Source: Nanobdellota archaeon (lineage in GTDB: Archaea > Nanobdellota > Nanobdellia > Parvarchaeales > Parvarchaeaceae). From it: DNA of 64,000 bases. Of the stretch, positions 17,988 through 33,451 are shown one piece after another. The first letter of the stretch is position 1, and every line of letters begins with the position of its first letter. Both the position numbers and the translations under genes were made by a program. The notes beneath the pieces are model-generated. The model had not been told where the DNA came from and searched no databases. It was given only the letters and a program-made list of their open reading frames with translations. Location: the NCBI GenBank assembly GCA_021802105.1, contig JAKAAW010000002.1:993-64992 (forward strand), in the 5' to 3' direction.

Positions 17988-18695
17988 ATGGATAATATGG
18001 TTCTGAAAGAAATCGGGTCAGCCATTGAAAAAATATTGAACGATGATGTAATAATCTCGACTAAGAAATCCTATAATAATATAACGGATAGCGACATACA
18101 CGATATTTACTCCAATATTCAGTCAGCAGTCGGGAAAGACAACCTGATACTTTTCGGCGGTTGCGCACTTTTGCATTACATAAAACACAAGCCATCAGAT
18201 GTGGATGTCATAATCCGCTATGGTGGTGATATAAAAGCTCTAAGCCAAAAACTCTCCGATAAGTTTGATAAACTTGAGATGGTATCTCATCCTTTCCTAA
18301 ATGCAAAAGTTTACAAAACTATCTACACTAGTGATTCCGGTCAAAAAATACCCGTGGATATGTTCACTAATCCTCCGTCCAAGCGTGTTTCAATCGATGG
18401 CGTTTTCAGCCGTGGAAAGCGTGCCTATACGGACGGCATGCTCGTCAACGTAGCTAATCAGCGTGATCTTGCAGAATTCGCGTACGCCTCATGGAAAAAC
18501 CGTTTGTTCAATGGCAGGGGCGATAAAGATCACGAATATCTTGTTAATCTTGACCGAAAATTCGGTGATTCAACAGTACCTCCTCAGTATATATCTGGAA
18601 CACACAGCAATCCAGCATCCAGATTGAAGAGCGTTCTCGGCGTTTACATTGCCGGCGCGATGCGCGATAGGATAAGAAAGGAAGCGCGATATTAG
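17988..18695 (+). CDS. Nucleotidyltransferase-fold protein (orphan)
   Basis: LFGGCALLHYIKHKPSDVDVII fits the minimal NTase pattern G[GS]x9-13 DxD. Confidence 0.4.
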   Translation: MDNMVLKEIGSAIEKILNDDVIISTKKSYNNITDSDIHDIYSNIQSAVGKDNLILFGGCALLHYIKHKPSDVDVIIRYGGDIKALSQKLSDKFDKLEMVSHPFLNAKVYKTIYTSDSGQKIPVDMFTNPPSKRVSIDGVFSRGKRAYTDGMLVNVANQRDLAEFAYASWKNRLFNGRGDKDHEYLVNLDRKFGDSTVPPQYISGTHSNPASRLKSVLGVYIAGAMRDRIRKEARY

Positions 18696-20222: not shown

Positions 20223-20593
20223 TCTTTTTATCCAGCTTTTCTATATACCACAGTTTTTATATGGATCCTTTGACATTTATAAGCACATATCTATTTTATT
20301 GATAGTCCAACTGTCAAAAGTAGGATAAGTAGGATAAATACTACTTAATAGGCACTAGGGAGACTTTTCTCAACAATTAATTTAATGTTATTTTAACATT
20401 ATTTAGTGCTATAATTAATATGTTAATATATCAATATTAGTATAATTAGTTTGAAGTAAATTATTGCTATTTAATTAATAATAATACAAACAATACTTAT
20501 ACTTTTATACTAAAGTTTATATTATTATAGAAACTATATATATGTTAATATAGAACAGCTAAAAAATAAATAGAAACAACTACTAACACTGGT

Positions 20594-21013
20594 ATGGATA
20601 AAAGAAATCATAGACGTAACGGTTACAAGAATTCCCCCGAGTTCGGTGATTGGCGCCATGGTCCGTTCAGGATGGTCTTTTCTTTCTTATGGGTGATGTT
20701 TTTTGTTCTTGTTTTCCTGTCTATGATAGCGCTGGTTCTTAATTATATAATTGGAATACCAATTAGCTGGCTGGGAAATGCTTGGGGAGCATGGGGTGGA
20801 ATCTGGATATTTTTATTGATATTATTCTTTTTTATGAGGCCATGGGGCTGGATGTACTACTGGAAGTATAATGACCCGCGAATATGGAGGCGTCAGGGGT
20901 ATGGTGACCATTTTGATGACTATGCTCTTTATATAGCAAGAAAACGTCTAGCGCATGGCGAGATTACAGTTGAACAGTATAGGAAGATCGTCAATGAGCT
21001 AAAAAGAAAGTAA
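20594..21013 (+). CDS. Small membrane protein with a C-terminal SHOCT domain
   Basis: Two or three Trp/Gly-rich TM helices. The C-terminus ARKRLAHGEITVEQYRKIVNELKR matches the SHOCT pattern (RxARGEIxxEEYxxxKxxL). Confidence 0.6.
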   Translation: MDKRNHRRNGYKNSPEFGDWRHGPFRMVFSFLWVMFFVLVFLSMIALVLNYIIGIPISWLGNAWGAWGGIWIFLLILFFFMRPWGWMYYWKYNDPRIWRRQGYGDHFDDYALYIARKRLAHGEITVEQYRKIVNELKRK

Positions 21014-21264
21014 AATTACGTATACATATGGTGTTCTTTGCAATTGATAAAGTACCAGCGCTTCCGCAGCTTATGGACTGATGACGCAGTGCAGCAATGT
21101 TCTAGTGCATATCATCTCAGAGTGTTCGGCGTTCAGATCCAGACTTTATTGCTAAAAAACACAGCTTTGATTATTATGATATTATAACATAAGTATTGTT
21201 ATTCAATTTTTATCCCTTTTTTCCACTCACAAACTTTAAATATTATAACCACTTATAACTTGTT

Positions 21265-21699
21265 ATGGCGACTACAATACAGATAAGCGACGAGGTTAAG
21301 GAAAAGTTAGAAGGACTGAAAATCCACAAAAGACAACCGTTTAATGAAGTTCTTTTAGAGTTAATAAGGGACAAAGAGGCTGGTAAAAACACAGAAGAAA
21401 GGCAAAAGCAGGTGGTAAACAGCCTTGAAGAGATTAAAAAATTAGCCGCTCCTATATTAAGGAACCACAGGATAAAGAAAGCCGCCGTATTCGGGTCATT
21501 TGCAAGGGGCGATTTTGATGATAAAAGTGATGTAGATATATTAATAGAGCGGCCGGATAAATTCTCTTTATTTGATTTAGCTGGCCTACATCTTGACTTA
21601 GAAGGAGCATTGGGTAGGAAGGTGGATATAGTTATATACAATAGTGTAAATCCTCTGATAAAAGGTAGGGTAATGAAAGAAAAAAAGGACATAATATGA
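21265..21699 (+). CDS. mntA: RHH-fused minimal nucleotidyltransferase (MntA-type antitoxin)
   Basis: N-terminal TIQISDEVKEKLEGLK (RHH/antitoxin-like), then VFGSFARGDFDDKSDVDILI (GSx10DxD). Confidence 0.8.
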   Translation: MATTIQISDEVKEKLEGLKIHKRQPFNEVLLELIRDKEAGKNTEERQKQVVNSLEEIKKLAAPILRNHRIKKAAVFGSFARGDFDDKSDVDILIERPDKFSLFDLAGLHLDLEGALGRKVDIVIYNSVNPLIKGRVMKEKKDII

Positions 21700-22037
21700 G
21701 AGAAGGGCAGGATAAGGTGCTATTAACTGATATTTTATCAGCAATCGAGTGGATTAAAAATCACACGAAAGGAATCAACGAAGAAGAATTTAAGAAAAAT
21801 GATGTTTTGGTGTATGCGGTAATAAAGAATATGGAAATAATTGGTGAAGCGTCATCGAGTCTTTCGGAGTATACTATAAATAAAAATCAACAAATTGAAT
21901 GGCAGAAGATAAAGGACATGAGAAATGTACTTGTGCATGCCTATTCTAAGATTAATTTAGAAACACTTTGGGATACCATAATAAATGATCTGCCTAGATT
22001 AAAAGATCAGATAAGACATATCAAGAAAAATGAATAA
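21696..22037 (+). CDS. hepT: HEPN (DUF86) toxin HepT
   Basis: MRNVLVHAYSKINLETLW contains the Rx4H HEPN motif. An ATGA start/stop overlap links it to the upstream MNT gene. Confidence 0.8.
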   Translation: MREGQDKVLLTDILSAIEWIKNHTKGINEEEFKKNDVLVYAVIKNMEIIGEASSSLSEYTINKNQQIEWQKIKDMRNVLVHAYSKINLETLWDTIINDLPRLKDQIRHIKKNE

Positions 22038-22164
22038 TTATTCTTTTGAGAGGAACCTATAGTTTCGCTAATTATTTAGAGAGTTAAAAGTAAAAATCGA
22101 TATTATTAGTTATGGCCTATGAACCGACGAAGGATCGCATAATGAAAGGGACGTAAGCCACTTT

Positions 22165-22314
22165 ATGGATAAAAATTCAAAAGATGATAAGGAGTTAATT
22201 AGGCACATGATTAATCTAATAATATATCAATACTTCAGAATAAACGCAAAAGAGATATGGAATATTGTATGGAAGGACTTACTTCAACTCGAGAAGAAAC
22301 TTAAGCAATCTTAA
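22165..22314 (+). pseudogene. Decayed C-terminal fragment of a third HEPN/DUF86 gene (49-aa ORF)
   Basis: My translation is MDKNSKDDKELIRHMINLIIYQYFRINAKEIWNIVWKDLLQLEKKLKQS. It aligns with ..MRNVLVHAYSKINLETLWDTIINDLPRLKDQI of the neighbouring HepT, but the R and H of Rx4H are replaced. Confidence 0.3.
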
Positions 22315-22450
22315 TAGTTTCAGTTCTCCTAACATATCGTAGAATTTACATCAAACTTGAAAAGTAAAATTTAGTTAAAAACTGGTTCTATAAGCTATAA
22401 TTTGGTGGTATACCGCTAAACTTAAATAATCAAACTAATCAATATGCTTT

Positions 22451-22939
22451 ATGACTGAAAAGATAGACTGGAAAGAGCTTGATAAATTCATAAGAAAATG
22501 CCTGAAAGTAATGACATCTGTAAACAGTATGAAAGCATTTATAGCCAAAAGAGACGGATCAAAGACAAGATTTTACAAGTGGCGAAAGTGGAGATACCAT
22601 GACAATTTCATAACCAGAAACGGATATGTTGCTGGCCAGGGCATACTTTATTATGACAAAAGACCGGTATTTTCAGCGGTTTACTACTATTCCTTTGCTG
22701 AAGATGCGGGCTTAAAACTGCTAAAATTCTTAGGGGAAGCAGTACTCGATAGCTATGATTACTTTTCAAAAAACCCTTCAAAAACGAAATTCTGTTTTAA
22801 AAACAAACAATTTGAATACTCAAGAACCATGAAAAAGGCTAATGAGATGGATACTTTAACATCTGAAAACAGCGTAAAAATCAAGGAAAAAGGCAAAACT
22901 GTTTACTTTGCAAAGGATATAAGCGGATACTTAATTTAG
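22451..22939 (+). CDS. Hypothetical protein (162 aa)
   Basis: Clean ORF in the accessory region. I recognise no motif. Confidence 0.5.
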   Translation: MTEKIDWKELDKFIRKCLKVMTSVNSMKAFIAKRDGSKTRFYKWRKWRYHDNFITRNGYVAGQGILYYDKRPVFSAVYYYSFAEDAGLKLLKFLGEAVLDSYDYFSKNPSKTKFCFKNKQFEYSRTMKKANEMDTLTSENSVKIKEKGKTVYFAKDISGYLI

Positions 22940-23001
22940 AAGAGAAAACTATAAATAGTATATAAGTTTATATAATAATATTAATAAGTATTATAACAGT
23001 T

Positions 23002-23274
23002 ATGACAAAGAATGTAAATGAGGTATTGCATTACCCCAGACTTGATACAGTATTGATGGTTGAGGAGGCGATAAAAAATGCTAAAGAGTACTCCTCAAAA
23101 AGACAACTTTGGCTTTCATTGAAGAAAAAGGTCATGTATCAAACTTTTAACATAGTTATAGATTATTTGGTAGAGTCAAACAAAGTGGTCATCGATAAGG
23201 AAGGCAAGGTTATTTGGATATGGGATCCAGAAGGCGTAAAAAAGTATATGAAAGAGGGAGTAATAATACGATGA
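23002..23274 (+). CDS. Putative antitoxin / small winged-helix-like protein
   Basis: 90 aa. Its stop overlaps the ATG of the RelE-like gene (ATGA at 23271-23274). Confidence 0.45.
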   Translation: MTKNVNEVLHYPRLDTVLMVEEAIKNAKEYSSKRQLWLSLKKKVMYQTFNIVIDYLVESNKVVIDKEGKVIWIWDPEGVKKYMKEGVIIR

Positions 23275-23597
23275 GGCAAATAAATGTGGTTCTAGTTGAT
23301 AAAAAACTTGAAAATTTATTGAATAAAGCTAAAAATGATGAACCGCAAGTTTATAAATTTCTAAATCGGGCATTTGATGACTTAAAGAAAGATCCAACCT
23401 GCGGTATACAGATACCAAAAAATTTGATACCTAAATATTATATACAAAGGTATGGTATAGATAATTTGTGGAAATATAACCTGCCAAATGCCTGGCGTCT
23501 GATGTACTCAATAAAAGGATCCGATATTTCTATTCTTACAGTGGTTTTAGAATGGTTACCACATAAGGAATACGATAGAAGATTCGGATACTTATAA
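23271..23597 (+). CDS. RelE/ParE-superfamily toxin-like protein
   Basis: LWKYNLPNAWRLMYSIKGSDISILTVVLEWLPHKEYDRRFGY resembles the RelE/YoeB-type C-terminal core (W/R..Y.i....i.v..i..H.eY). Small and basic. Confidence 0.6.
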   Translation: MRQINVVLVDKKLENLLNKAKNDEPQVYKFLNRAFDDLKKDPTCGIQIPKNLIPKYYIQRYGIDNLWKYNLPNAWRLMYSIKGSDISILTVVLEWLPHKEYDRRFGYL

Positions 23598-23885
23598 TAA
23601 GGATTTCATAATTTAAGTCATGGGTAAGTATCTTTCTCCTTTTGGGAGAAAAGGGAAGCACTTGATTTCGTTATTTTACGATTTACCCATCAAAGGTATC
23701 CTGCGACGAATGATGGGGATCAAACGCCACTTAAGTATAATTCTATGGCTTTTCGTATGTTTTTTATGTGTTTTTTAGCGATTTTGAGGCCTCGATTTCT
23801 ACCCTTACAGGGTATCCAGATTACACTTAAAGACTAATTGAGATGGGAAAAACTACTAAATTTGCTGTTTTTACTTCAATTATAT

Positions 23886-24359
23886 CTATTTATTAACCAT
23901 CTTTTGGGCTTTTCTAATCAAAGCTTCACCCCAGTCCCCATACCCACTTACCGAGTATTCCTCTACATTTAAATTGCCGTCTCTAGTTTTTTCAACATCG
24001 AATACTAATCGGTAATCCGGACCTGGCTGACCTAAACTTATTTTCAGGTGAGGAGAACCGCAATTATAATAACTAAGCTGAAGTGGATAGCTATAAGCCT
24101 TATCCTTACTCACAAGAAAATATTTAATGGAATATACAGCAGCCCGTCCATTACTAAGAGAGAATACCTCCCCTTTACCTTTTTCAATGCCTTTATTCAG
24201 CAAAACTATTGCGCTCTCATATAAATTTAAGATATTTGACCGAATTTTAATTGTTTCCATACGCAGTATTTCATCCAATTTTTCTTCTTTTTTCCGTATA
24301 TGGTCATCTTCTTTTTTCTCTATATAGCCACCACGCTCTTTAGTATCCAAAGCTCCCAT
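23886..24359 (-). CDS. Hypothetical protein (157 aa), with a charged N-terminal helix and a beta-rich C-terminus
   Basis: Clean ORF with no recognised motif. Confidence 0.5.
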   Translation of the reverse strand: MGALDTKERGGYIEKKEDDHIRKKEEKLDEILRMETIKIRSNILNLYESAIVLLNKGIEKGKGEVFSLSNGRAAVYSIKYFLVSKDKAYSYPLQLSYYNCGSPHLKISLGQPGPDYRLVFDVEKTRDGNLNVEEYSVSGYGDWGEALIRKAQKMVNK

Positions 24360-24456
24360 AATTTATACCTTCTACTCACTACTATTCAATACTATAGAAA
24401 ATAAGTTATATAAATACTTGTTTTTATGGTTATGGGTACACTTACAGCTAAAATGC

Positions 24457-24978
24457 CTATTTTTTGACTATTTTTACGCCCTTTTTATGCCACATGCTCC
24501 TGCTCTTTTTAATCAGGTTCTCAGTCGTACTCTCCATCCAAATCGAATCGATATACTTGCCTTTTATTTTTAGAACATTTTTTATCAGCCCAGCTCTCTT
24601 TCCACCGCAGTTCTCGAAAAGGGCAATTGAAGCTTTGTTGTCAGGGGTGGTGCTGATAAGCGTTATCTTTATACCTTTATTTAGTGCCGTCTGAGCTGTT
24701 TGGAACATCATAAAGTAGGACAAGCCACTGCCTCTGAACTTCTTTGATACAAAATAGCCGATTTCGCCGACATGTCTGCTGTAATAATTCCCATGAACAG
24801 TTGTTGGGCGGCGAATGTTGTAGTTGGCTATATTCTTAGAATCGTAATAAGCGCTTAGTATATAGTTGTTAAGTGAATATCTTGTTGTTTCTTTGCCGGT
24901 AACTAGTTTGTATAAGGGTTTCTCGCTCTCTACTCTGCTTATACTTACCACTCTGCCGTCCTTCAGCTGAATCAACAT
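24457..24978 (-). CDS. GNAT-family N-acetyltransferase
   Basis: FRGSGLSYFMMFQTAQTALNKG (acetyl-CoA-binding R/QxxGxG/A-like segment) and NKASIALFENCGGKRAG. Confidence 0.75.
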   Translation of the reverse strand: MLIQLKDGRVVSISRVESEKPLYKLVTGKETTRYSLNNYILSAYYDSKNIANYNIRRPTTVHGNYYSRHVGEIGYFVSKKFRGSGLSYFMMFQTAQTALNKGIKITLISTTPDNKASIALFENCGGKRAGLIKNVLKIKGKYIDSIWMESTTENLIKKSRSMWHKKGVKIVKK

Positions 24979-25423
24979 ACTTAAGTTAAGCAGTTTTGGC
25001 TATTAAGTTTGTCTATGTGCATGCTAAAAACGCCATCCTTAGTGCCTTTTAGCTAGTCTTCTTCATCCATATAACATTCGGATAGTTAGAAGACTAACTA
25101 AAATCACGGAAAATACTAAAATTACCTTCTTATAGTCATAGTTTTCTTACAAATAGATTTAGTTTCATTTTTTATATTTTATTATTTTATCTAATATATT
25201 AATATTAATTATTTAGGTATAATATCATTAATAGTACATTCTAAAAATAAGTAATATTATCATATTATATAATACTATTTTTATATTTTAATTAGCAATA
25301 ATTTTATGTTAAGTTATAATCAGCCAGTGAAAATATGGATAAAATCGCATCGATTTGCTAGAAGTATAAATCTATATATCAAAGTAACTAAAGGTATTTA
25401 TACCTTTATAACCTTATATCTGT

Positions 25424-25930
25424 ATGGCACAGATGAAAAGCTATATCCCGAACGACATAGATAAAAAGCTAAGGATCCAAGCGATGGTAAGATTCGGTTA
25501 CGGCAGGGGATCCATAAGTAAGGCTGTGGAAGAGGCGTTAATGCAGTGGTTAAAGAAGGAGGCAGTAATAAATGATGTGATACAGAGGATAATTGAACAC
25601 GGGAAGGAGGATAAAAACATAACTGCGATAATACTATTTGGAAGCTATGCAAGAAAGGAGCCTGGCTTCAATGACGTTGACGTGGGTTTTTTGGTGAAAA
25701 TCAGCGAAGAATTCGATATATTAAAATACATCAATCTGCTTGAGGGCGAAGCTGCAAATCTTTTTCAGATGACGGTCATAAACAGTTTCCCAGAATGGAC
25801 ACAGGTACATATAATCGACGAGGGAGTGCTCCTGCAGGTGAATGACAGGAGCGAATTATATGGCTATACTTCCAAGCTTATACGCAATTTTTCTGACAAC
25901 GCACATATAGCGGCGCTGCTTAGAAGCTGA
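25424..25930 (+). CDS. mntA: RHH-fused minimal nucleotidyltransferase (second MntA-type antitoxin)
   Basis: N-terminal SYIPNDIDKKLRIQAMVRFGYGRGSISKAVEEALMQWL (CopG/RHH-like), then LFGSYARKEPGFNDVDVGFL. Confidence 0.75.
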   Translation: MAQMKSYIPNDIDKKLRIQAMVRFGYGRGSISKAVEEALMQWLKKEAVINDVIQRIIEHGKEDKNITAIILFGSYARKEPGFNDVDVGFLVKISEEFDILKYINLLEGEAANLFQMTVINSFPEWTQVHIIDEGVLLQVNDRSELYGYTSKLIRNFSDNAHIAALLRS

Positions 25931-25932
25931 TT

Positions 25933-26364
25933 ATGGAATACGATATGCGTGACAGGATAATCGATAAACTAAATGAGATAGATGTACATTTAAACCGGAT
26001 AAAAAGTATACGTGTAAATAGTTTTGAAGATTACAAAAACGCGGACCCGAATATAAAGTATTCAACGGAGAGGAACCTGCAGCTGATAAGCGACGCAGAG
26101 CTGGACGTAGTTGTCCTAATGTACAAAAAATTCGGCAGGGACGTAGCAGGGGGCCTGCCATCGATGATAAAATCGTTAAAATCCGTGTTGAGCAGTAGCC
26201 TGCTTGGATATTTTGATAAACGGAGGGAACTTAGGAACAGATTGGTGCATGTATATAAGGAATTTTCATTCGATAAGGAAGTCTTTGAATCCAGCAGGGA
26301 CACAGCAGATATTGAAGCGTTTGTGCAGGAAATTAAAAAAATAATAGACAGGGATTGGACTTAA
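25933..26364 (+). CDS. hepT: HEPN (DUF86) toxin (second HepT)
   Basis: RRELRNRLVHVYKEF contains Rx4H. The gene starts 2 nt after the MNT stop. Confidence 0.75.
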   Translation: MEYDMRDRIIDKLNEIDVHLNRIKSIRVNSFEDYKNADPNIKYSTERNLQLISDAELDVVVLMYKKFGRDVAGGLPSMIKSLKSVLSSSLLGYFDKRRELRNRLVHVYKEFSFDKEVFESSRDTADIEAFVQEIKKIIDRDWT

Positions 26365-26486
26365 AGCTGCGGGACTAGAGTTTTATATCTGGCTCCTCAG
26401 CATTTTGCACGGATGATCTTTGTCTTGCTATTTGTTTCCTAGACTCATATCTCTTTATTTTCGGATCGGCCAGCGCAATTAGACGC

Positions 26487-26504
26487 CATATGCAAAGGCA
26501 TATG
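26487..26504. promoter_or_regulatory. Perfect 7-4-7 palindrome upstream of the mer operon; candidate operator
   Basis: CATATGC-AAAG-GCATATG, about 76 nt upstream of the first mer-operon ATG (26580). Confidence 0.35.
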
Positions 26505-26550
26505 CACCCTATAACAAGTAATTATGTACACCCTGTGAAATGTGGCAGAT

Positions 26551-26574
26551 TTATATATGATAAAAATATCATAT
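26551..26574 (+). promoter_or_regulatory. TATA-like box plus an overlapping 8-4-8 palindrome directly upstream of the mer-operon start; candidate promoter/operator for a leaderless transcript
   Basis: TTATATAT at 26551-26558 lies about 25 nt upstream of the ATG at 26580. ATATGATA-AAAA-TATCATAT spans 26555-26574. Confidence 0.35.
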
Positions 26575-26579
26575 AATCA

Positions 26580-27101
26580 ATGATTCGAGACATAAAGAAA
26601 GTTATATCTTTGAGAGTATACGCATTCCTTTTTTCTATCCTTTTTACCTCAATATTTATTATTTACTTCTACCTACTGGAGAGCTCTGCAACTGGTATAA
26701 TGGACTTTAAATCATACTATATCTACTTTGATATATTGTCTGCGCTCATAATTTCATTTTTAGTGGGCTTAGTTATAACGCTCAACGTCTATTCTTATAG
26801 GTTAAAAACTAAGACAAGCAAAAAGCTGACTTTAAGCTCAATAATAGGTGCAATACTACCAAGCAGTCTATGTTGTACCAGCGTGATACCTTCATTGATG
26901 GCAGCGCTTGGGTTTTCAACATCTTTTATAGTCGGAAACACCGGAAAATTGCAGTCATTTTTTTCCTTGTATAGCCCGGGATTTATTGTGGCAGGGGCTG
27001 CAATAGCATTTTTTGGGCTTGTTCAGGTAACAAAAAATATAAACGCAAATTGTAGAATAACCAAAAATTCAAAGAATGATCGTTGCGAGGTTAAGGAATG
27101 A
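26580..27101 (+). CDS. Membrane protein with a MerT/MerF-like vicinal-cysteine helix (putative Hg(II) uptake protein)
   Basis: 4-5 TM helices. LPSSLCCTSVIPSLMAALGFS resembles the MerT TM1 sequence ..ACCLGPLVLIALGFS. It is the first gene of an operon that ends with merA. Confidence 0.5.
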   Translation: MIRDIKKVISLRVYAFLFSILFTSIFIIYFYLLESSATGIMDFKSYYIYFDILSALIISFLVGLVITLNVYSYRLKTKTSKKLTLSSIIGAILPSSLCCTSVIPSLMAALGFSTSFIVGNTGKLQSFFSLYSPGFIVAGAAIAFFGLVQVTKNINANCRITKNSKNDRCEVKE

Positions 27102-27652
27102 AAATCAGAATAAAATACTTGTTGTATATCGCCGTTTTGGTAATCGCCATGTTTATATTGTTGAATTTTTTAGTGCTGAACAATGCAAAATCCGGTGAGT
27201 ATCTCTCAGTAGGGGAAACCGCCCCAAATTACACCTTTCAACTTGCTAATGGCAGCACACAAAGCCTAAGCAGCTACAGTGGGAAACCGCTTATTTTATG
27301 GTTTGTAGCTACATGGTGCAGCAGTTGCGCACAGGGCAACACTGCAGTAGCAGAGAATCTTGGTTTCTTCAAAGAGCATAACGTCAAGATTGTAGAGCTG
27401 GAGCAGTACAATGACCTTGGAAGTGCAGGAATGTCAATCTCTAAGTTTATTTCTGAATACGGAAATAACAACACTTATATAACTGGGGGAATTGCAAGCT
27501 ACAACATGACACTGGCTTATAACACTCCTCCAAGTTTACAGCTTGACATATATTATCTGATAAGCCCGAATGGAAAGATACTAAATATAGGAGAAGGAAT
27601 CGCTGGCGGGATAGGAAATCTGGAGAATACAATATTAAAAGATGGCCTATGA
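27098..27652 (+). CDS. Membrane-anchored thioredoxin-fold protein (TlpA/ResA/redoxin-like)
   Basis: N-terminal TM anchor, then GKPLILWFVATWCSSCAQ (the WCxxC thioredoxin motif). ATGA overlaps occur at both ends of the gene. Confidence 0.7.
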   Translation: MKIRIKYLLYIAVLVIAMFILLNFLVLNNAKSGEYLSVGETAPNYTFQLANGSTQSLSSYSGKPLILWFVATWCSSCAQGNTAVAENLGFFKEHNVKIVELEQYNDLGSAGMSISKFISEYGNNNTYITGGIASYNMTLAYNTPPSLQLDIYYLISPNGKILNIGEGIAGGIGNLENTILKDGL

Positions 27653-27972
27653 AAAAAGCAACTGATTTTTTCTTTGACGCATTAGCAAACAAAAACAGAT
27701 TCAATATACTTATGCATCTCAGAAATAAAGAGATATGTGCAGGTGAGCTTCAAAAGAATCTTGGGATAGGACAGACTAACCTGTCGCATGACTTGAAATG
27801 CCTGCTTAATTGTGGGTTTATAATCATGAGGAAGGACGGGAGAAAAAGAGTTTACAAGATAAACACTGAAACAAAGGGATTAGTAGATGAAGTGGCAAAG
27901 CACGTTAAAATTTATGAAAGGTATTTGAAGAAATGTGGTATACTAAAGGAGGAAAAAAATGGAAGAATATGA
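27649..27972 (+). CDS. ArsR/SmtB-family metal-responsive transcriptional regulator
   Basis: NRFNILMHLRNKEICAGELQKNLGIGQTNLSHDLKCLLNCGFIIMRKDGRKRVY is a typical ArsR wHTH, with Cys candidates at EIC and CLLNC. Confidence 0.8.
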   Translation: MKKATDFFFDALANKNRFNILMHLRNKEICAGELQKNLGIGQTNLSHDLKCLLNCGFIIMRKDGRKRVYKINTETKGLVDEVAKHVKIYERYLKKCGILKEEKNGRI

Positions 27973-29374
27973 ATACGCAGTAGTGGGACACGGAGCTGCT
28001 GCCTTTGCTGCTGCATTGAAAGCGGATGATGCAGGGATAAAAACAGTGATGATAGGAAAAAATGAAACCGCCGGAGCAATTCTCGGTGGAACCTGCGTAA
28101 ACGTGGGATGCGTTCCTAGTAAAAGACTTATAACATTAGGAAATTTATTAGACAAAATAAATTACAGGAGATTTGATGGTTTATCCTACCTTACAAGGAT
28201 AGAAAATTTTAGCAAGATAATGCAAGATAAAGAATTTCTTGTTGAAAGTATGCGTTTCTCAAAATATAAGAAGGTACTTGGTAAATTAAAAAACGTGAAG
28301 TATGTGAACGGCTTTGCAAGCTTTAAAGATAAGAACATATTAATGGTAAACGGGCAAGAGATAAGAGCAAAGAAAATACTGATTGCAACTGGTGCGAGAG
28401 CAAAAATACCTAGAATAGACGGAATAGAAAAGATAAGATACTTGACAAATGAAGAGGCACTTTCACTGGAAAAACTTCCAAAGTCAATTATAATAGTAGG
28501 CGGAAGGGCATTGGGCCTTGAATTTGCGGAGTTGTTCGCTCATTTAGGAGTACAGGTTACTTTGTTGCAGAGAAGCGATAGAATACTGCCTGACTGGGAG
28601 CCTGAAGTTAGTTATTATCTTGAGCAGTACCTGAAGGAGGATGGGATAAATATAATAACTAATGTTAAAATAGATGAGGTTTCAAAGATTAAAGGGCTTA
28701 TAAACTTAACATTTTCCGTAAAAGGAATCAAAAGGGAATCAAAGGCAGAAGAGATTCTGCTGGCAACTGGCAGAATGCCGAACATAGAGAAATTGAATTT
28801 AAACAACATTGGAATAAAACTCGACAAGGATGGCTTTATAAAAATAAACAAGTACCTGGAAACTTCTGTCGAGGGGATTTATGCTGCTGGAGATGTAACA
28901 GGAGAGCCCATGCTTGAGGCATTGGCAGCCGCGGAGGGGAATAAAGCAACCATAAATGCATTCGGCGGCAAAAAAGTAGCAATTGACCTAAATTCTGTAC
29001 CTTCTGCTGTTTTCACATTTCCGGAAGCTGCGAGGGTTGGATTGACTGATAAAGAAGCGAACAACAATGGAATAAAGTGTGCCTGTCGGCCGGTGATGTT
29101 TAAAGATCTAGCCAAGGCAGGTATAATAAAAGATACTAGAGGATTGATAAAGATGGTAATAAACGCTAAGACTAAACGTATATTAGGCGTAGAAATAGTC
29201 GGAGAAAATGCAGCCGATCTAATACACGAATCTGTACTAGCTATAAAATTCAAGCTTACAATAGACGACATAATTGATACTGTTCATATATTTCCAACTT
29301 TAAGCGAGATAACGAAACTTGGAGCTCTATCATTTTATCATAACATAGATGACTTAAGCTGCTGCAGTGAATAG
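27959..29374 (+). CDS. merA: Mercuric reductase MerA (core enzyme, no NmerA domain)
   Basis: FAD fold VVGHGAAAFAAALKA, redox-active GGTCVNVGCVPSK, C-terminal vicinal Cys pair ..DDLSCCSE (MerA hallmark), and GGAGG 8 nt upstream of the ATG. Confidence 0.8.
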   Translation: MEEYEYAVVGHGAAAFAAALKADDAGIKTVMIGKNETAGAILGGTCVNVGCVPSKRLITLGNLLDKINYRRFDGLSYLTRIENFSKIMQDKEFLVESMRFSKYKKVLGKLKNVKYVNGFASFKDKNILMVNGQEIRAKKILIATGARAKIPRIDGIEKIRYLTNEEALSLEKLPKSIIIVGGRALGLEFAELFAHLGVQVTLLQRSDRILPDWEPEVSYYLEQYLKEDGINIITNVKIDEVSKIKGLINLTFSVKGIKRESKAEEILLATGRMPNIEKLNLNNIGIKLDKDGFIKINKYLETSVEGIYAAGDVTGEPMLEALAAAEGNKATINAFGGKKVAIDLNSVPSAVFTFPEAARVGLTDKEANNNGIKCACRPVMFKDLAKAGIIKDTRGLIKMVINAKTKRILGVEIVGENAADLIHESVLAIKFKLTIDDIIDTVHIFPTLSEITKLGALSFYHNIDDLSCCSE

Positions 29375-29761
29375 ACAAGAATTTAAGTTTATTTTAAGAT
29401 CATACGACGATGTCAGTCACTTGTGTAGTTTTCTATTTGATTAGATAGATAACATATAGGTAAAGATTAATTGAAATAGACAAAAAATCGGAAAAAATAG
29501 CTGTTTTGCACGGGTTATCTATGATTTTGATTCTTTATCCCCGATTATGACTCCTACTATAAGCAGTATAGCACTAAGAACCACCTCGAAGACTATAAGT
29601 TTCGGAAGGGAGATGTCCCTTGATTTAAAGTAAGCCAGAGCGCTTGTCACTCAGGCTATTACCAATCCGATGCCGACACCCAAAAAGTATCTCGCTGGAA
29701 GGGTATAGAAAGTAAGCCGAGTACCGTCCACGCTTATAATACACAGGTACCTTACACAAGT

Positions 29762-29998
29762 ATGACAGACGAAAGACAGCAGGAGGACAATTCCGCTAGA
29801 AAGAGCTCTACAAAAAAGAAGGTAGTCGTCATGACGATAACGGCGCTGTACTTCGTATTCGGGTTTTTCGCGCTTGTTATCTTGTTGGGGAGGGTCATCA
29901 ACCCGAACTACGCGGGACTCATAGGTTTAGTGTACCTAGCGCTAGGTTGGTATTTCTTGGTGAAGAGGCGCACGCTTATACACTTGATGAAACACTGA
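29762..29998 (+). CDS. Small two-TM membrane protein (hypothetical)
   Basis: 78 aa with a charged N-terminus and two hydrophobic helices. It lies in a region otherwise full of decayed fragments. Confidence 0.35.
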   Translation: MTDERQQEDNSARKSSTKKKVVVMTITALYFVFGFFALVILLGRVINPNYAGLIGLVYLALGWYFLVKRRTLIHLMKH

Positions 29999-30355
29999 AC
30001 AACTTGTGTATGTTTTTTACCGAAGCCGAAGTTATATTTATATATAACATCAGTGTCCTTAGCGAGTTCAACGTTTGTTTCATTTAATTCGGCACTGTGC
30101 TCCAGAAATCCCATGTTAGCAGTTGTGCAATACTAAGCTGTTATTTCATTTTTAATTGCCTACATAAATGCATTCATTATTGTTTCCTTGGCTTTATACC
30201 CTACACTTTATATTCTAATTGGGCTAAGATTACTGCAAGAGTCGTGTGTGTATCATGCCAAATTTATCTTATTTTCATTTGTTCTGCCCACTGATAATAG
30301 TCATTTCCTAAGAGAACACGGTGGTTATACCAATGTCGTGATTTCTTCTTTAATA

Positions 30356-30817
30356 TTACCAGAAAGCACTGAATTTGTCGTAACGACCGATTGCATGATA
30401 TATAGTGTTCATATCCTTCTTTAGAGCATTTAAACCGTTCTCATCTGGGCTATAAGCCACTTTTATTTTTTCTGCATAGTTGTTCTTATCTATCTCAGCT
30501 TTAACTCCATTGTCCAGCAAGTCTAGATATAACTTCGAGAATTCTGCGCTGGTCTTGTCTGTGGGATTGTTTATGGTAAGGAAAATACTCATAGGTCTGT
30601 CAACTATGCGTTTCTTTCCTCTTAGGTCATACTGGACGGTAAACTGTGCGAAACGCAACTCACTGTGAAAGATATGCATGTTGCATGGAAGCATTAGTAC
30701 CTGATTCACTCGGCCTGGATCTATGTTCGGGTATGCCTCATGGTACAGCATGAGTTTTCTTAGCTCTGCCTTGTTGACAGCATCCAACACATCTTCTAGA
30801 AGTATCTGTTTTGCCAT
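30356..30817 (-). CDS. Hypothetical protein (153 aa from the MAKQILLEDV start)
   Basis: Clean ORF. TTATATATATAAA sits about 25 nt upstream of the ATG at 30817, which suggests a leaderless start. No recognised motif. Confidence 0.5.
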   Translation of the reverse strand: MAKQILLEDVLDAVNKAELRKLMLYHEAYPNIDPGRVNQVLMLPCNMHIFHSELRFAQFTVQYDLRGKKRIVDRPMSIFLTINNPTDKTSAEFSKLYLDLLDNGVKAEIDKNNYAEKIKVAYSPDENGLNALKKDMNTIYHAIGRYDKFSAFW

Positions 30818-30878
30818 ATAACTTATGATAGATTTATATATATAACCTTTAAACATCATCAATTAGATATAGGTAACC

Positions 30879-31407: not shown

Positions 31408-33288
31408 TTAACTTGCAGTCACAACAGTTTCTGCATGTGCACCGATTTTTCCAAATAGATTTATACTATAAGAATCTCCTGAAATAAGCACGGCAAAAGG
31501 AGATGGTATCTTTACACCATTGTCACTTTGTACCTGCTGGGACGGTCCTAAATTCAATAAGCCACTGAGGGTAAACGTAATCGAATCTCCAGGCATAAGG
31601 GTATAACCTTTAGGTATCTGGTCCGGGTTTATCGTGACATTCGTATTGGTCGCGCCGTTGGCAATTGTATTCAATGCCGCGCCGTTCGCACTCGTCGAAT
31701 TAGAAACTACCTTTGTGCTCATCGCGTACATTGGTGGGAATCCAAGCGTACCGTTCGGGAATATCATGCGACCTATAGGGAACTTAGCTGCTCGTAAAGT
31801 TATCTGCAGCGGTGGAGTTACAGTCGGTGGTGCCATGCCGGCCGGGAATTGTATATAGAGCGTCGTTCCAACAGGAAGCGTTACCGCCGTGGCTCCAGAT
31901 GGTATAGTGACATTCAGGGCAGGCCCTTGCTGAGAACCATTTTGCTGGATAGTGTGTGTAAATTGCGGCATTGTAGTAGTTTTATAAACTATATCACCGC
32001 TGACATTGACAAGTGCTCCCGTTGAGTTTAATGATATTGCATGCGCTGGTGTGACTATTTTCAAGAAATAGAAAGTTCCATTTAATGTAATATTCAGAGA
32101 TACTGTACTATTTGTGCTGTTAATATAACCTGTACTATTTGACGTTTTTGTATTTGTACTGTTAATAGCACTTTTGTTAATATAACTTGTGCTAATAGAG
32201 GGTGTTATATTTGTACTGTTAATAGCACTTTTGTTAATATAACCTGTACTATTTGACGTTTTTGTATTTGTACTGTTAATCGGAGGTCGAGTCGGTATAG
32301 AAGGCAACGTAAACGTTGATGTTGTGTTCATTATCGTGCCATTGGGGAATGTTATCACCATCTTTGGAGGAGGTATAAAACCAGATGGGGTTAGCACGCC
32401 CGCTGGTGGAGTTATAGGGAGTTGCATGATCATGGATGGAAGACGGAAGAGCTCACTCATTGGAGGTTGTGGGAAATACACTTTTTTGAGCCCATTTATC
32501 ATTATACCGTTCAGCTGCACGCTATCATTCCCAGTGTTCTTTACGGTTACACTAAGATTGGTATAGTTACCGTCGATGGATATTGACGCAGAAGTAACAT
32601 TTATGGTAGGCGTTACATTGTTGAACAATTTACCTAAGCTTACATTGGAAGAAAAGTTCACCTTAGAACCTACTGGAGGAAGAGACTGTATTATTCCATG
32701 CTGCACACTAGAGGATCTGCTTAAAAATATGTTTGGTGGAGTTATGACAGCTCTCACATTAGCAGTCAAAACGTACACAGTCTTATCTACCGTTTCTATG
32801 GCTGTGACTGAAGGAATTAAGTCGACAAGCGCGTTTTTCTGCCCAGATATTGAATTGTTGGACGTTACATTTATCGTCAGTGTCCTTTCGCCTATCACGA
32901 CAGTATAGTTTTCGCCGCCTATCGTTATAATAGCATTGGATATATTAATTTTTATCTGCGTGACTTTAGAACCATTAAGAACGTTTGTTGATGCTAACAC
33001 TATCGATGAATTTTGCAGGCTTAGCACGTTTACGGTACCACTTCCTGGAAGTGTCTGCGTGCTTACGCCGCCACTATGCGAAATCTGGAGTTGCAGAGCA
33101 GAATATGTCACGAACAGCGCCGTGGTCCCTTGTGGCACTGTTGCAGGATCAGTAAGACTAAGGAAGAAATTTTTCTGTAAAGGAACTGAACTGGTCGTTG
33201 GGAACAAATTGTTAAAGATCATATACCCTGCGACAATAGCTATTACCGCCACAACGGTGACCATCATTAAGTAGGTTTTCGCACCCAT
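31408..33288 (-). CDS. Large secreted or membrane-anchored, heavily sequon-rich surface (S-layer-like) glycoprotein
   Basis: N-terminal anchor MGAKTYLMMVTVVAVIAIVAGYMIF. Dozens of N-x-S/T sequons and Thr/Ser/Asn/Pro-rich repeats. Confidence 0.6.
   Translation of the reverse strand: MGAKTYLMMVTVVAVIAIVAGYMIFNNLFPTTSSVPLQKNFFLSLTDPATVPQGTTALFVTYSALQLQISHSGGVSTQTLPGSGTVNVLSLQNSSIVLASTNVLNGSKVTQIKINISNAIITIGGENYTVVIGERTLTINVTSNNSISGQKNALVDLIPSVTAIETVDKTVYVLTANVRAVITPPNIFLSRSSSVQHGIIQSLPPVGSKVNFSSNVSLGKLFNNVTPTINVTSASISIDGNYTNLSVTVKNTGNDSVQLNGIMINGLKKVYFPQPPMSELFRLPSMIMQLPITPPAGVLTPSGFIPPPKMVITFPNGTIMNTTSTFTLPSIPTRPPINSTNTKTSNSTGYINKSAINSTNITPSISTSYINKSAINSTNTKTSNSTGYINSTNSTVSLNITLNGTFYFLKIVTPAHAISLNSTGALVNVSGDIVYKTTTMPQFTHTIQQNGSQQGPALNVTIPSGATAVTLPVGTTLYIQFPAGMAPPTVTPPLQITLRAAKFPIGRMIFPNGTLGFPPMYAMSTKVVSNSTSANGAALNTIANGATNTNVTINPDQIPKGYTLMPGDSITFTLSGLLNLGPSQQVQSDNGVKIPSPFAVLISGDSYSINLFGKIGAHAETVVTAS
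32100..32285. repeat. Tandem repeat of 57 nt (19 aa), about 3 copies, inside the surface-protein gene
   Basis: GTTAATATAACCTGTACTATTTGACGTTTTTGTATTTGTACTGTTAAT occurs exactly at 32119-32166 and 32233-32280, with a diverged copy between. The protein reads INSTNTKTSNSTGYINKSA / INSTNITPSISTSYINKSA / INSTNTKTSNSTGYIN. Confidence 0.85.
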
Positions 33289-33451
33289 AATGTTATTGTA
33301 ACAATGCACTAATTTAAATACCTATCTGCAATAAACTCATGTTTACTGCACGATTCTTCAAGAACCGTTCAAGACGCTTATTCCTGGCTGTAGAATGCCC
33401 ACTGTTCATCTTTGCTTCCATTTTTTATTGATTATCCGTACTAAATGTAAT

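Follow-up and report, generated by a model that had tools for sequence, protein, structure and literature searches.

A mosaic, strain-variable stretch of accessory genes downstream of an MFS gene in Candidatus Parvarchaeum as a probable hotspot of genome plasticity

Here we describe a stretch of about 10.6 kb (positions 20223-30870) rich in toxin-antitoxin and mercury-resistance (mer) genes in the genome of a Candidatus Parvarchaeum from the acid-mine ARMAN-4/5 group. The window, i.e. the whole piece of DNA to which all positions refer, comprises 64,000 nucleotides (nt; G000:C17:993-64992) of a metagenome-assembled genome (MAG) of 669 kb in 25 contigs, which is 89% complete and has a G+C content (GC) of 42.6%. 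This genome (G000) was compared with other genomes of the Parvarchaeales, also designated by G-labels, among them ARMAN-5 (G046). The genomes of DPANN archaea are tiny and streamlined, and a dependence on hosts is assumed for these organisms. A sequence-only reading had taken the stretch for an accessory island between an MFS gene and an FKBP gene, set apart from its flanks by gene content, decayed DNA, long spacers and composition, and all four of these differences stand. The genes and spacers on which the following argument is built are listed in the order of their positions.

20223..20593, no strand: left border spacer with a GC of 0.218, containing a 32-nt motif and hyper-AT tract 1 (20359-20558)
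20594..21013, plus strand: membrane protein of 139 amino acids (aa) with a SHOCT-like C-terminus, apparently an old resident, GC 0.407
21265..22037, plus strand: MNT1 (21265-21699, RHH and nucleotidyltransferase) and HepT1 (21696-22037), assigned by Pfam, GC 0.37 and 0.32
22165..22308, plus strand: C-terminal remnant of a HepT, PF01934 at 22.5 bits, below the cut-off, profile positions 72-119
22451..22939, plus strand: 162-aa protein, borderline DUF5680, Pfam 24.9 bits at a cut-off of 25
23002..23597, plus strand: 90-aa antitoxin candidate (23002-23274) and 108-aa YoeB-family toxin (23271-23597), overlapping by 4 nt
23886..24359, minus strand: lineage-restricted 157-aa protein with 6 matching clusters among 1.84 billion representatives
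24457..24978, minus strand: GNAT acetyltransferase, apparently an old resident, Pfam Acetyltransf_1
24979..25423, no strand: spacer with hyper-AT tract 2 (25109-25308), GC of the tract 0.13
25424..26364, plus strand: MNT2 (25424-25930) and HepT2 (25933-26364), apparently old residents, assigned by Pfam, GC 0.42 and 0.40
26547..29375, plus strand: mer cassette, apparently imported, 2.83 kb with four genes, GC 0.376
26580-27101, plus strand: first mer gene, membrane protein (173 aa) with a Cys-Cys pair (SSLCCTS) in a hydrophobic stretch of the translation
27098-27652, plus strand: second mer gene, membrane-anchored thioredoxin-like (Trx-like) CxxC protein, redoxin match
27649-27972, plus strand: third mer gene, ArsR-family regulator, HTH_5 match
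27959-29374, plus strand: fourth mer gene, MerA, TIGR02053 equivalog at 540.9 bits versus a cut-off of 454.45

The GC of the stretch is 0.357 compared to 0.426 for the genome and is the lowest among 434 sliding windows of 10.6 kb over the assembly. Also, the tetranucleotide distance reaches its maximum at 21-26 kb (z = 5.7), which makes this region the strongest outlier of the genome. Non-coding DNA accounts for 2,949 nt (28%) of the stretch and has a GC of 0.30, and 69% of its length is occupied by open reading frames (ORFs) of at least 100 aa, compared to 88% in the remaining window. The long spacers with two hyper-AT tracts were found as described: tract 2 (GC 0.13) and tract 1 (GC 0.16) are the two lowest-GC 200-nt windows of the whole assembly, the third-lowest having a GC of 0.235. 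Coding GC is not uniformly lowered and differs from gene to gene (0.31-0.42). Low values (0.31-0.38) were obtained for MNT1/HepT1, the 162-aa, 90-aa, 108-aa and 157-aa genes, and the membrane-protein, ArsR and MerA genes of the mer cassette, while the genes of the 139-aa protein, GNAT, MNT2/HepT2, the Trx-like protein and a 153-aa protein at the right end are near the native value (0.40-0.42). The proposed AT-richness of the coding sequence thus applies to MNT1/HepT1, the YoeB pair, the 162-aa and 157-aa genes and most mer genes, but not to those with a GC of 0.40-0.42.

The gene content given by the sequence-only reading (two MNT/HepT pairs, a HepT remnant, a further toxin pair, a GNAT, unknown proteins and a four-gene mer operon) was recovered by profile searches and translations. 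Both MNT/HepT pairs score above the Pfam cut-offs (HepT-like 3e-27 and 4e-9; Polbeta/NTP_transf_2 1e-14 and 4e-8), the HepT translations contain the motifs RNVLVH and RNRLVH, and both MNTs have GS...DVD. The genes of the first pair overlap by 4 nt and those of the second are 2 nt apart; the HepT remnant is called as a 49-aa gene in other assemblies. For the 108-aa toxin, 789 homologues annotated at their source as YoeB/Txe were found, some of which (52-60% identical) carry PF06769. The protein itself has no Pfam hit at E <=5, PF06769 and ParE/RelE (PF05016) included, its match to a YoeB sequence of the PDB is weak (E 0.085), and the sole PADLOC hit in a scan of defence profiles is a weak CARF_RelE match. 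A partner gene of 87-90 aa, which overlaps or abuts the toxin gene on its upstream side, is conserved in Acidiplasma and several Parvarchaeum contigs. What had been called a RelE-like pair is a pair by its conserved partner and belongs to YoeB/Txe by the annotation of its homologues, though not by a Pfam hit of its own. Similarly, the protein described as a SHOCT membrane protein is a membrane protein, but its match to SHOCT (PF09851) reaches only 12.7 bits (E 0.11) at a cut-off of 27. The best NCBIfam match of the GNAT is also weak (ArsN1, 36 bits versus a cut-off of 170). Within the order, the only traces of the 162-aa protein are pieces of a pseudogene in G043 and a fragment of its C-terminus in ARMAN-5. 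A structural model of the 157-aa protein was unusable (predicted local distance difference test, pLDDT, 46). In MerA, the translation contains the redox-active CxxxxC (TCVNVGC) and a C-terminal Cys pair (SCCSE). For the 173-aa membrane protein, searches of Pfam and NCBIfam gave no family, the known Hg(II) transporter families (MerT/P/C/F/E/H) included.

Part of this gene set is found around the MFS gene in other members of the genus. In a lower-GC clade (G003, G049, G013 and G012), whose MFS orthologue is 54-56% identical to that of G000, MNT2 homologues (41-44%) with a HepT partner directly adjoin the MFS gene. In G003, the MFS, MNT2-like and HepT genes are followed on the same strand by genes for a SHOCT-like protein, a GNAT, a bPH membrane protein and a protein that is likely 157-like. 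The second gene upstream of the MFS gene encodes an FKBP there. The SHOCT-like protein of G003, which adjoins the GNAT and MFS genes, resembles the 139-aa protein in architecture and C-terminal motif as judged by eye, unaligned. GNAT orthologues (58-59% identical) lie in the MFS neighbourhood of both G003 and G049, and in G021 a GNAT homologue (42%) is located near the gene of a 186-aa protein. The MFS neighbourhoods of G012 and G001 contain distant homologues of the 157-aa protein, and likely ones, recognised by eye below the search threshold, are found beside the GNAT and bPH genes of G003 and G049. Since they neighbour an MFS gene of only 54-56% identity in distant congeners, the SHOCT-like, GNAT, 157-aa and MNT2/HepT2 genes appear to be long-standing MFS neighbours across the genus, with a native-like or mixed GC.

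A different arrangement is present in G010, a close relative of G000 (core protein 87% identical). Its contig G010:C73 carries, in this order, the 32-nt motif, an AT-rich spacer of 240 nt, orthologues of MNT2/HepT2 (~60% protein identity), a 109-aa gene and a 77-aa gene on the minus strand. In the alignment, the left half of this spacer corresponds to AT tract 1 and the right end to 25386-25418 just before MNT2, so that, relative to G010, the block of ~20.5-25.4 kb lies inside a spacer of the G010 type. In the same comparison, the mer cassette sits between HepT2 and a remnant of the 77-aa gene; in G010, the 77-aa gene is found ~850 nt downstream of the HepT2 orthologue with no mer in between.

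The mer cassette occupies one conserved locus in eight other genomes (including G019, G012, G022, G002 and G049), between orthologues of G000:C7:11441-12691 (plus a 200-aa gene) and of C7:14434-15366. This canonical locus is without mer in G000, G010, G014, G050 and ARMAN-5. DNA homology between the cassette of G000 and those at the canonical locus covers 26547-29375 with 71-79% identity and thus begins 33 nt before the first gene and ends with the MerA stop codon. In the carriers, mer and flanks have the same GC (0.37-0.40), while the cassette of G000 with 0.376 lies inside a genome of 0.426. The core proteins of the flanks are 66-83% identical between G000 and the carriers and 92-99% among the carriers, whereas the corresponding values for MerA are 81-85% and 86-91%. 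In the core-gene tree, G000 groups with G010, G014 and G050 (100/100) against all others including G011 (100/100); in the MerA tree, G000 is nested in the sequences of the other clade with exclusion of G011 (99-100). Approximately unbiased (AU) tests reject a vertical MerA topology (p 0.0015; p 0.0004 with G050 added) as well as a MerA clade of G000 and G050 (p 0.0095). Because of the separate conserved locus, the donor-like GC and the conflict between the MerA tree and the core-gene tree, the cassette appears to have been imported laterally from another Parvarchaeum lineage.

Further arrangements of mer were observed within the genus. G010 encodes a MerA of 56% identity to that of G000; this divergent MerA (G010:C75; L100 137-2112) is placed behind a different 183-aa gene and the membrane-protein, Trx-like and ArsR genes are not there, i.e. 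G010 has a second, unrelated mer arrangement. In G050, the 3' part of ArsR and MerA are found in a third context (G050:C23; L139 2509-4064) with a MerA nearly identical to that of G019, and this truncated mer indicates either a very recent transfer or a mis-binned contig. Overall, mer occupies at least four genomic contexts in the genus and moves repeatedly. At the canonical locus, G000 itself has an extra 344-aa gene of the DHH/DHHA1 family (G000:C7:12700-13734; L037 4701-5735) as well as a 214-aa gene. The DHH/DHHA1-family gene is absent from this locus in G010 and G050.

A second segment with foreign relationships contains the YoeB pair. On the 6-kb scaffold G046:C55 of ARMAN-5 (GC 0.312), homologues of MNT1 (75% protein identity) and HepT1 (72%) are followed by a 133-aa gene, a fragment of the 162-aa gene, the 90-aa gene (98.9%), the 108-aa gene (98.4%) and a 157-like gene (36%). 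Window positions 22841-23917 are 92.9% identical to this scaffold at the DNA level over 1,083 nt, while a core protein of G046 is 67% identical. Because of this discrepancy the segment cannot stem from vertical descent and seems to have been exchanged recently with an ARMAN-5-like lineage. The order MNT, HepT, 90-aa, 108-aa and, on the minus strand, 157-like gene recurs on other Parvarchaeum contigs beside restriction-modification and Shedu-type genes.

The toxin-antitoxin segment also differs between strains of the population itself. In the strain variant L069, the identity of 99.4% to the window drops to 74-81% at ~22891 and the gene order changes: its version of MNT1/HepT1 is 74% identical and differently ordered, and the 162-aa gene is absent or replaced. 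A recombination breakpoint near 22891 therefore distinguishes strains. The contigs of other assemblies end at 22934, 23078, 23404, 23755 and 23787, and because these ends cluster at 22934-23787 and L069 switches at ~22891, the toxin-antitoxin segment is under exchange at present.

We consider it probable that the stretch is a mosaic plasticity hotspot downstream of the MFS gene of this Candidatus Parvarchaeum and not a single integrated element. From the island originally proposed, the accessory content, the foreign-looking composition and the missing synteny with the nearest relatives are retained, but not the notion of one island gained in one acquisition, because part of the stretch is the old MFS neighbourhood and mer and the YoeB segment seem to have arrived separately from different sources. 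Several points weigh against this interpretation. The species-tree proxy consists of one core gene and the identity patterns of three, taken from incomplete MAGs. The mer DNA is only 71-79% identical to any sampled cassette, which implies either a donor outside the sampled genomes or a transfer that lies far back. The YoeB exchange may have run in either direction, and the short contigs G046:C55 (6 kb), G010:C73 (3.7 kb) and G050:C23 could be mis-binned. Finally, a 17/20-nt direct repeat (TTTTGCACGG.T.ATCT.TG) at 26403-26422 and 29504-29523 brackets mer (shuffle p ~0.025) and could point to a site-specific event; it sits 125-130 nt outside the ends of cassette homology and was not found at the mer loci of relatives.

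Vertical inheritance without any transfer would ascribe the low GC to relaxed selection and AT-biased mutation, and the location of mer to an intragenomic rearrangement. The AT-rich spacer DNA, 28% of the stretch, would lower the GC on its own, and some of the genes do belong to the ancestral neighbourhood. We nevertheless regard this explanation as unlikely, as the AU tests reject a vertical history of MerA, the identity of MerA to that of the other clade is far above the core-gene expectation, the agreement with ARMAN-5 over 1.08 kb is much closer than that of core protein, and the resident genes have kept their native GC.

The absence of an integrase, a transposase and a tRNA attachment site, already remarked upon in the sequence-only reading, was confirmed by searches at several levels. 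No tRNA was found in the 64-kb window, no mobility domain of Pfam in any ORF of the stretch and no tyrosine integrase (Phage_integrase) anywhere in the assembly; TnpB-type matches are confined to other contigs, and only the one on C9 exceeds the cut-off. Flanking repeats considered as attachment sites gave matches at chance level only, and matches between AT tract 1 and AT tract 2 were rejected as repeats as well (shuffle p 0.05 for inverted and 0.09 for direct matches). A viral origin was also considered and rejected: close relatives of the 162-aa or 108-aa protein are missing from IMG/VR. Among the classical marks of genomic islands, patchy presence among close relatives and a deviating, though by gene uneven, composition were found, while a mobility gene in or adjacent to the stretch and insertion next to a tRNA or flanking direct repeats were not.

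The left border is sharp and given by the MFS stop codon and the 32-nt motif; synteny stops at the MFS stop codon in G021, G014 and G010. The right border is diffuse: the deviation in composition weakens at ~29.4-30.4 kb, and the distribution of the 153-aa gene marks it as accessory. The variable zone of G010 extends to the orthologue of the 186-aa gene (33.4 kb), which has a HepT gene as its immediate neighbour. The alignment with relatives, by which an empty site and exact borders had been expected to show, yielded no simple empty site, since even the closest genomes are rearranged here. Upstream of the MFS gene, G000 encodes a 235-aa protein without Pfam match (17988-18695), and G021 has an MNT/HepT pair there (L021 8173-8912). 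Because of this difference, variability extends to the far side of the MFS gene, too.

A mobile element of ~10.6 kb such as a plasmid, a provirus or an integrative element, taken up in a single event and deprived of its integrase since, would account for the strongest compositional outlier of the genome, for its accessory, toxin-antitoxin-rich content and for the decayed sequence at one end. However, it is very unlikely in view of the GC, which is mixed per gene, and of the several genes which are old MFS neighbours in distant congeners. In addition, mer (71-79% DNA identity) and the YoeB segment (92.9%) differ in their relatives and divergence, and neither an integrase, a tRNA or a significant terminal repeat nor close viral relatives of the 162-aa and 108-aa proteins were found.

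An artefact of assembly can be excluded. Contigs encoding an identical 157-aa protein number 22 and come from many samples, and of ten such contigs aligned to the window nine are 99.4-99.9% identical and one (L071) 98.4%. L065 and L066, independent assemblies from different samples, cover the entire stretch plus both flanks at 99.75% identity, and eight further contigs span most of it with the same junctions. A chimera of two co-occurring Parvarchaeum populations, formed during assembly or binning, might be suspected in a MAG from a site where related species co-occur, and several assemblies break within the region, but with ten assemblies agreeing on the junctions, two of them across region and flanks, it can practically be dismissed.

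A gene for a sequon-rich surface protein to the right of the stretch (31408-33309) aligns in 8 of the 10 contigs as two pieces skipping or overlapping 32166-32232. The protein is called with 588, 633 or 649 aa among assemblies of the population, and these differences point to copy-number variation of an internal repeat.

Returning to the mosaic hotspot, we infer the following course of recombination, stabilisation and function from the gene identities, their distribution and composition, the phylogenetic conflict and the strain polymorphism. A first layer would consist of the residents, i.e. the SHOCT-like, GNAT, 157-aa and MNT2/HepT2 genes, which were rearranged such that a 4.8-kb block now lies within the AT-rich spacer preceding MNT2. 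The second layer would be the 2.83-kb mer cassette, placed between HepT2 and a membrane-protein gene that has turned into a remnant. As a third layer, the YoeB-type segment would have come from, or been exchanged with, an ARMAN-5-like lineage, the adjoining segment with MNT1/HepT1 and the 162-aa gene being strain-variable. The bPH gene would have been lost in G000 with its 80-nt upstream region surviving. As no recombinase or attachment site is present, the exchange may have proceeded by homologous or illegitimate recombination between co-occurring relatives.

With regard to function, the HepT proteins would be RNases restrained by MNT through nucleotidylylation, as expected from their family (type VII), and YoeB a ribosome-dependent mRNase neutralised by its 90-aa partner. 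The Cys-Cys membrane protein and the anchored CxxC protein could pass Hg(II) on to MerA, whose C-terminal cysteines would accept it before reduction, with mer probably under ArsR-type control. The toxin-antitoxin modules may plausibly protect the region from loss in a reduced genome.

The remaining features of the stretch are three non-coding elements and the genes and gene remnants at the right end.

20316-20347, no strand: 32-nt motif with tandem GTAGGATAA, 94% identical in G010:C73
23633..23838, no strand: conserved non-coding element of ~200 nt, 3' of the toxin gene
29463..29542, no strand: conserved non-coding piece of 80 nt, 91-92% identical to G049:C11 and G003:C19
29519..29740, minus strand: remnant of a small membrane-protein gene with an in-frame stop, blastx 57% over 35 aa to the 77-aa ORF of G010:C73
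29762..29998, plus strand: 78-aa ORF with two predicted membrane helices, gene status uncertain, called in all ten assemblies
30356..30817, minus strand: 153-aa accessory protein, 4 homologue clusters with 52-56% identity

In G010:C73, the 32-nt motif is located 240 nt upstream of the MNT2 orthologue. Single copies (<=3 mismatches) occur in AT-rich intergenic DNA of G048 and G016, and a control with the reversed pattern gave none. The motif may be an operator or another protein-binding site.

Of 40 Parvarchaeales genomes, 15 from two genera contain the 200-nt element at 81-92% identity, in one or two copies per genome, some of them at contig ends. It follows unrelated accessory genes (YoeB, HepT, MNT-like, GNAT and membrane-protein genes) and contains an imperfect internal repeat (GGTATCC ... 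CACTTAAG.A.TAATT, twice) and a T-rich tract. Assemblies of the population break inside it. Its predicted RNA structure is no better than that of shuffled sequences (z -0.81), with one covarying pair, its reading frame is inconsistent, and 1-nt indels argue against coding. As a further candidate, an RNA gene in the stretch was rejected, since no Rfam match was obtained at E <=1. The element may have remained from the shuffling of cassettes or may function as a junction signal.

In G003 and G049, 50-130 nt separate the counterpart of the 80-nt piece from the bPH membrane-protein gene downstream of it, a gene that is missing here. The overlapping gene remnant has its stop where G010 has W. When 29.4-30.36 kb was compared by blastx with all relatives retrieved and with the remaining genome, the 77-aa ORF was the single hit. 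Hence, the ~1 kb of decayed fragments described earlier is reduced to one membrane-protein remnant and the 80-nt piece, the remainder having no detectable relatives. The 78-aa ORF has a GC at third codon positions (GC3) of 0.66, which is unusual for the genome, and no significant family match. The homologues of the 153-aa protein have unrelated surroundings, with a Dam-type methyltransferase and a GNAT as neighbours. Its structural model (pLDDT 68) shows a weak resemblance to a YbjN-like fold (template modelling score 0.50, E 5e-3).

The three non-coding elements at 20316-20347, 23633-23838 and 29463-29542 might serve as integrase-free recombination or junction signals for swapping accessory cassettes such as toxin-antitoxin pairs and mer between co-occurring species of the Parvarchaeales. 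We rate the chance of this as slim; if true, the junction signals would amount to an integron-like or homing-like system in DPANN archaea.

In its broader meaning, the locus is largely ordinary genomic-island biology, and MerA in this group is already on record, with homologues listed in 10 Candidatus Parvarchaeota genomes (Christakis et al. 2021, PMC8261052). Chen et al. (2018, PMC5864196) make no mention of mercury, toxin-antitoxin systems or islands. What the locus adds is that a Parvarchaeum population with a genome of ~0.7 Mb retains a dedicated variable zone with turnover of toxin-antitoxin genes between strains, and that a mercury-resistance cassette was apparently gained from a related lineage without a recognisable mobility gene. 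Thereby, it provides a concrete, testable case of gene flow among co-occurring acid-mine nano-archaea.

With genomic, defence and toxin-antitoxin islands the stretch shares sporadic distribution, deviant composition, accessory content, a mosaic structure and strain variability. Unlike classical islands, it is without an integrase, a transposase, a tRNA target or a flanking repeat, part of its content is an ancient neighbourhood, and its host is a DPANN archaeon with a genome of ~0.7-0.9 Mb. HepT/MntA type VII systems are described from Shewanella oneidensis, Aphanizomenon flos-aquae and Legionella pneumophila (PMC11586414). The pairs predicted here agree with these in their two-gene operons with MNT preceding HepT, in the motifs GSx(n)DxD of MNT and Rx4H of HepT, and in Pfam scores above the cut-offs. 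They differ in the N-terminal RHH-like (VapB/DUF7557) extension of the MNTs and in the presence of two divergent pairs plus a remnant within 5 kb. Like YefM-YoeB and Axe-Txe, the third toxin has homologues annotated YoeB/Txe, some with PF06769, and a conserved small overlapping partner upstream; in contrast to YefM-YoeB, the 90-aa partner is not of the YefM/Phd type by any search and the toxin matches no Pfam model (E <=5). The mer cassette resembles known mer operons in its equivalog MerA with CxxxxC and C-terminal Cys-Cys, its compactness, a regulator of a metal-sensing type and lateral spread. However, neither a transporter of the MerT/P/C/F families nor a MerR-family regulator is detectable here, and their places are taken by an unclassified membrane protein with Cys-Cys, a thioredoxin-like protein with a membrane anchor and a regulator of the ArsR family.

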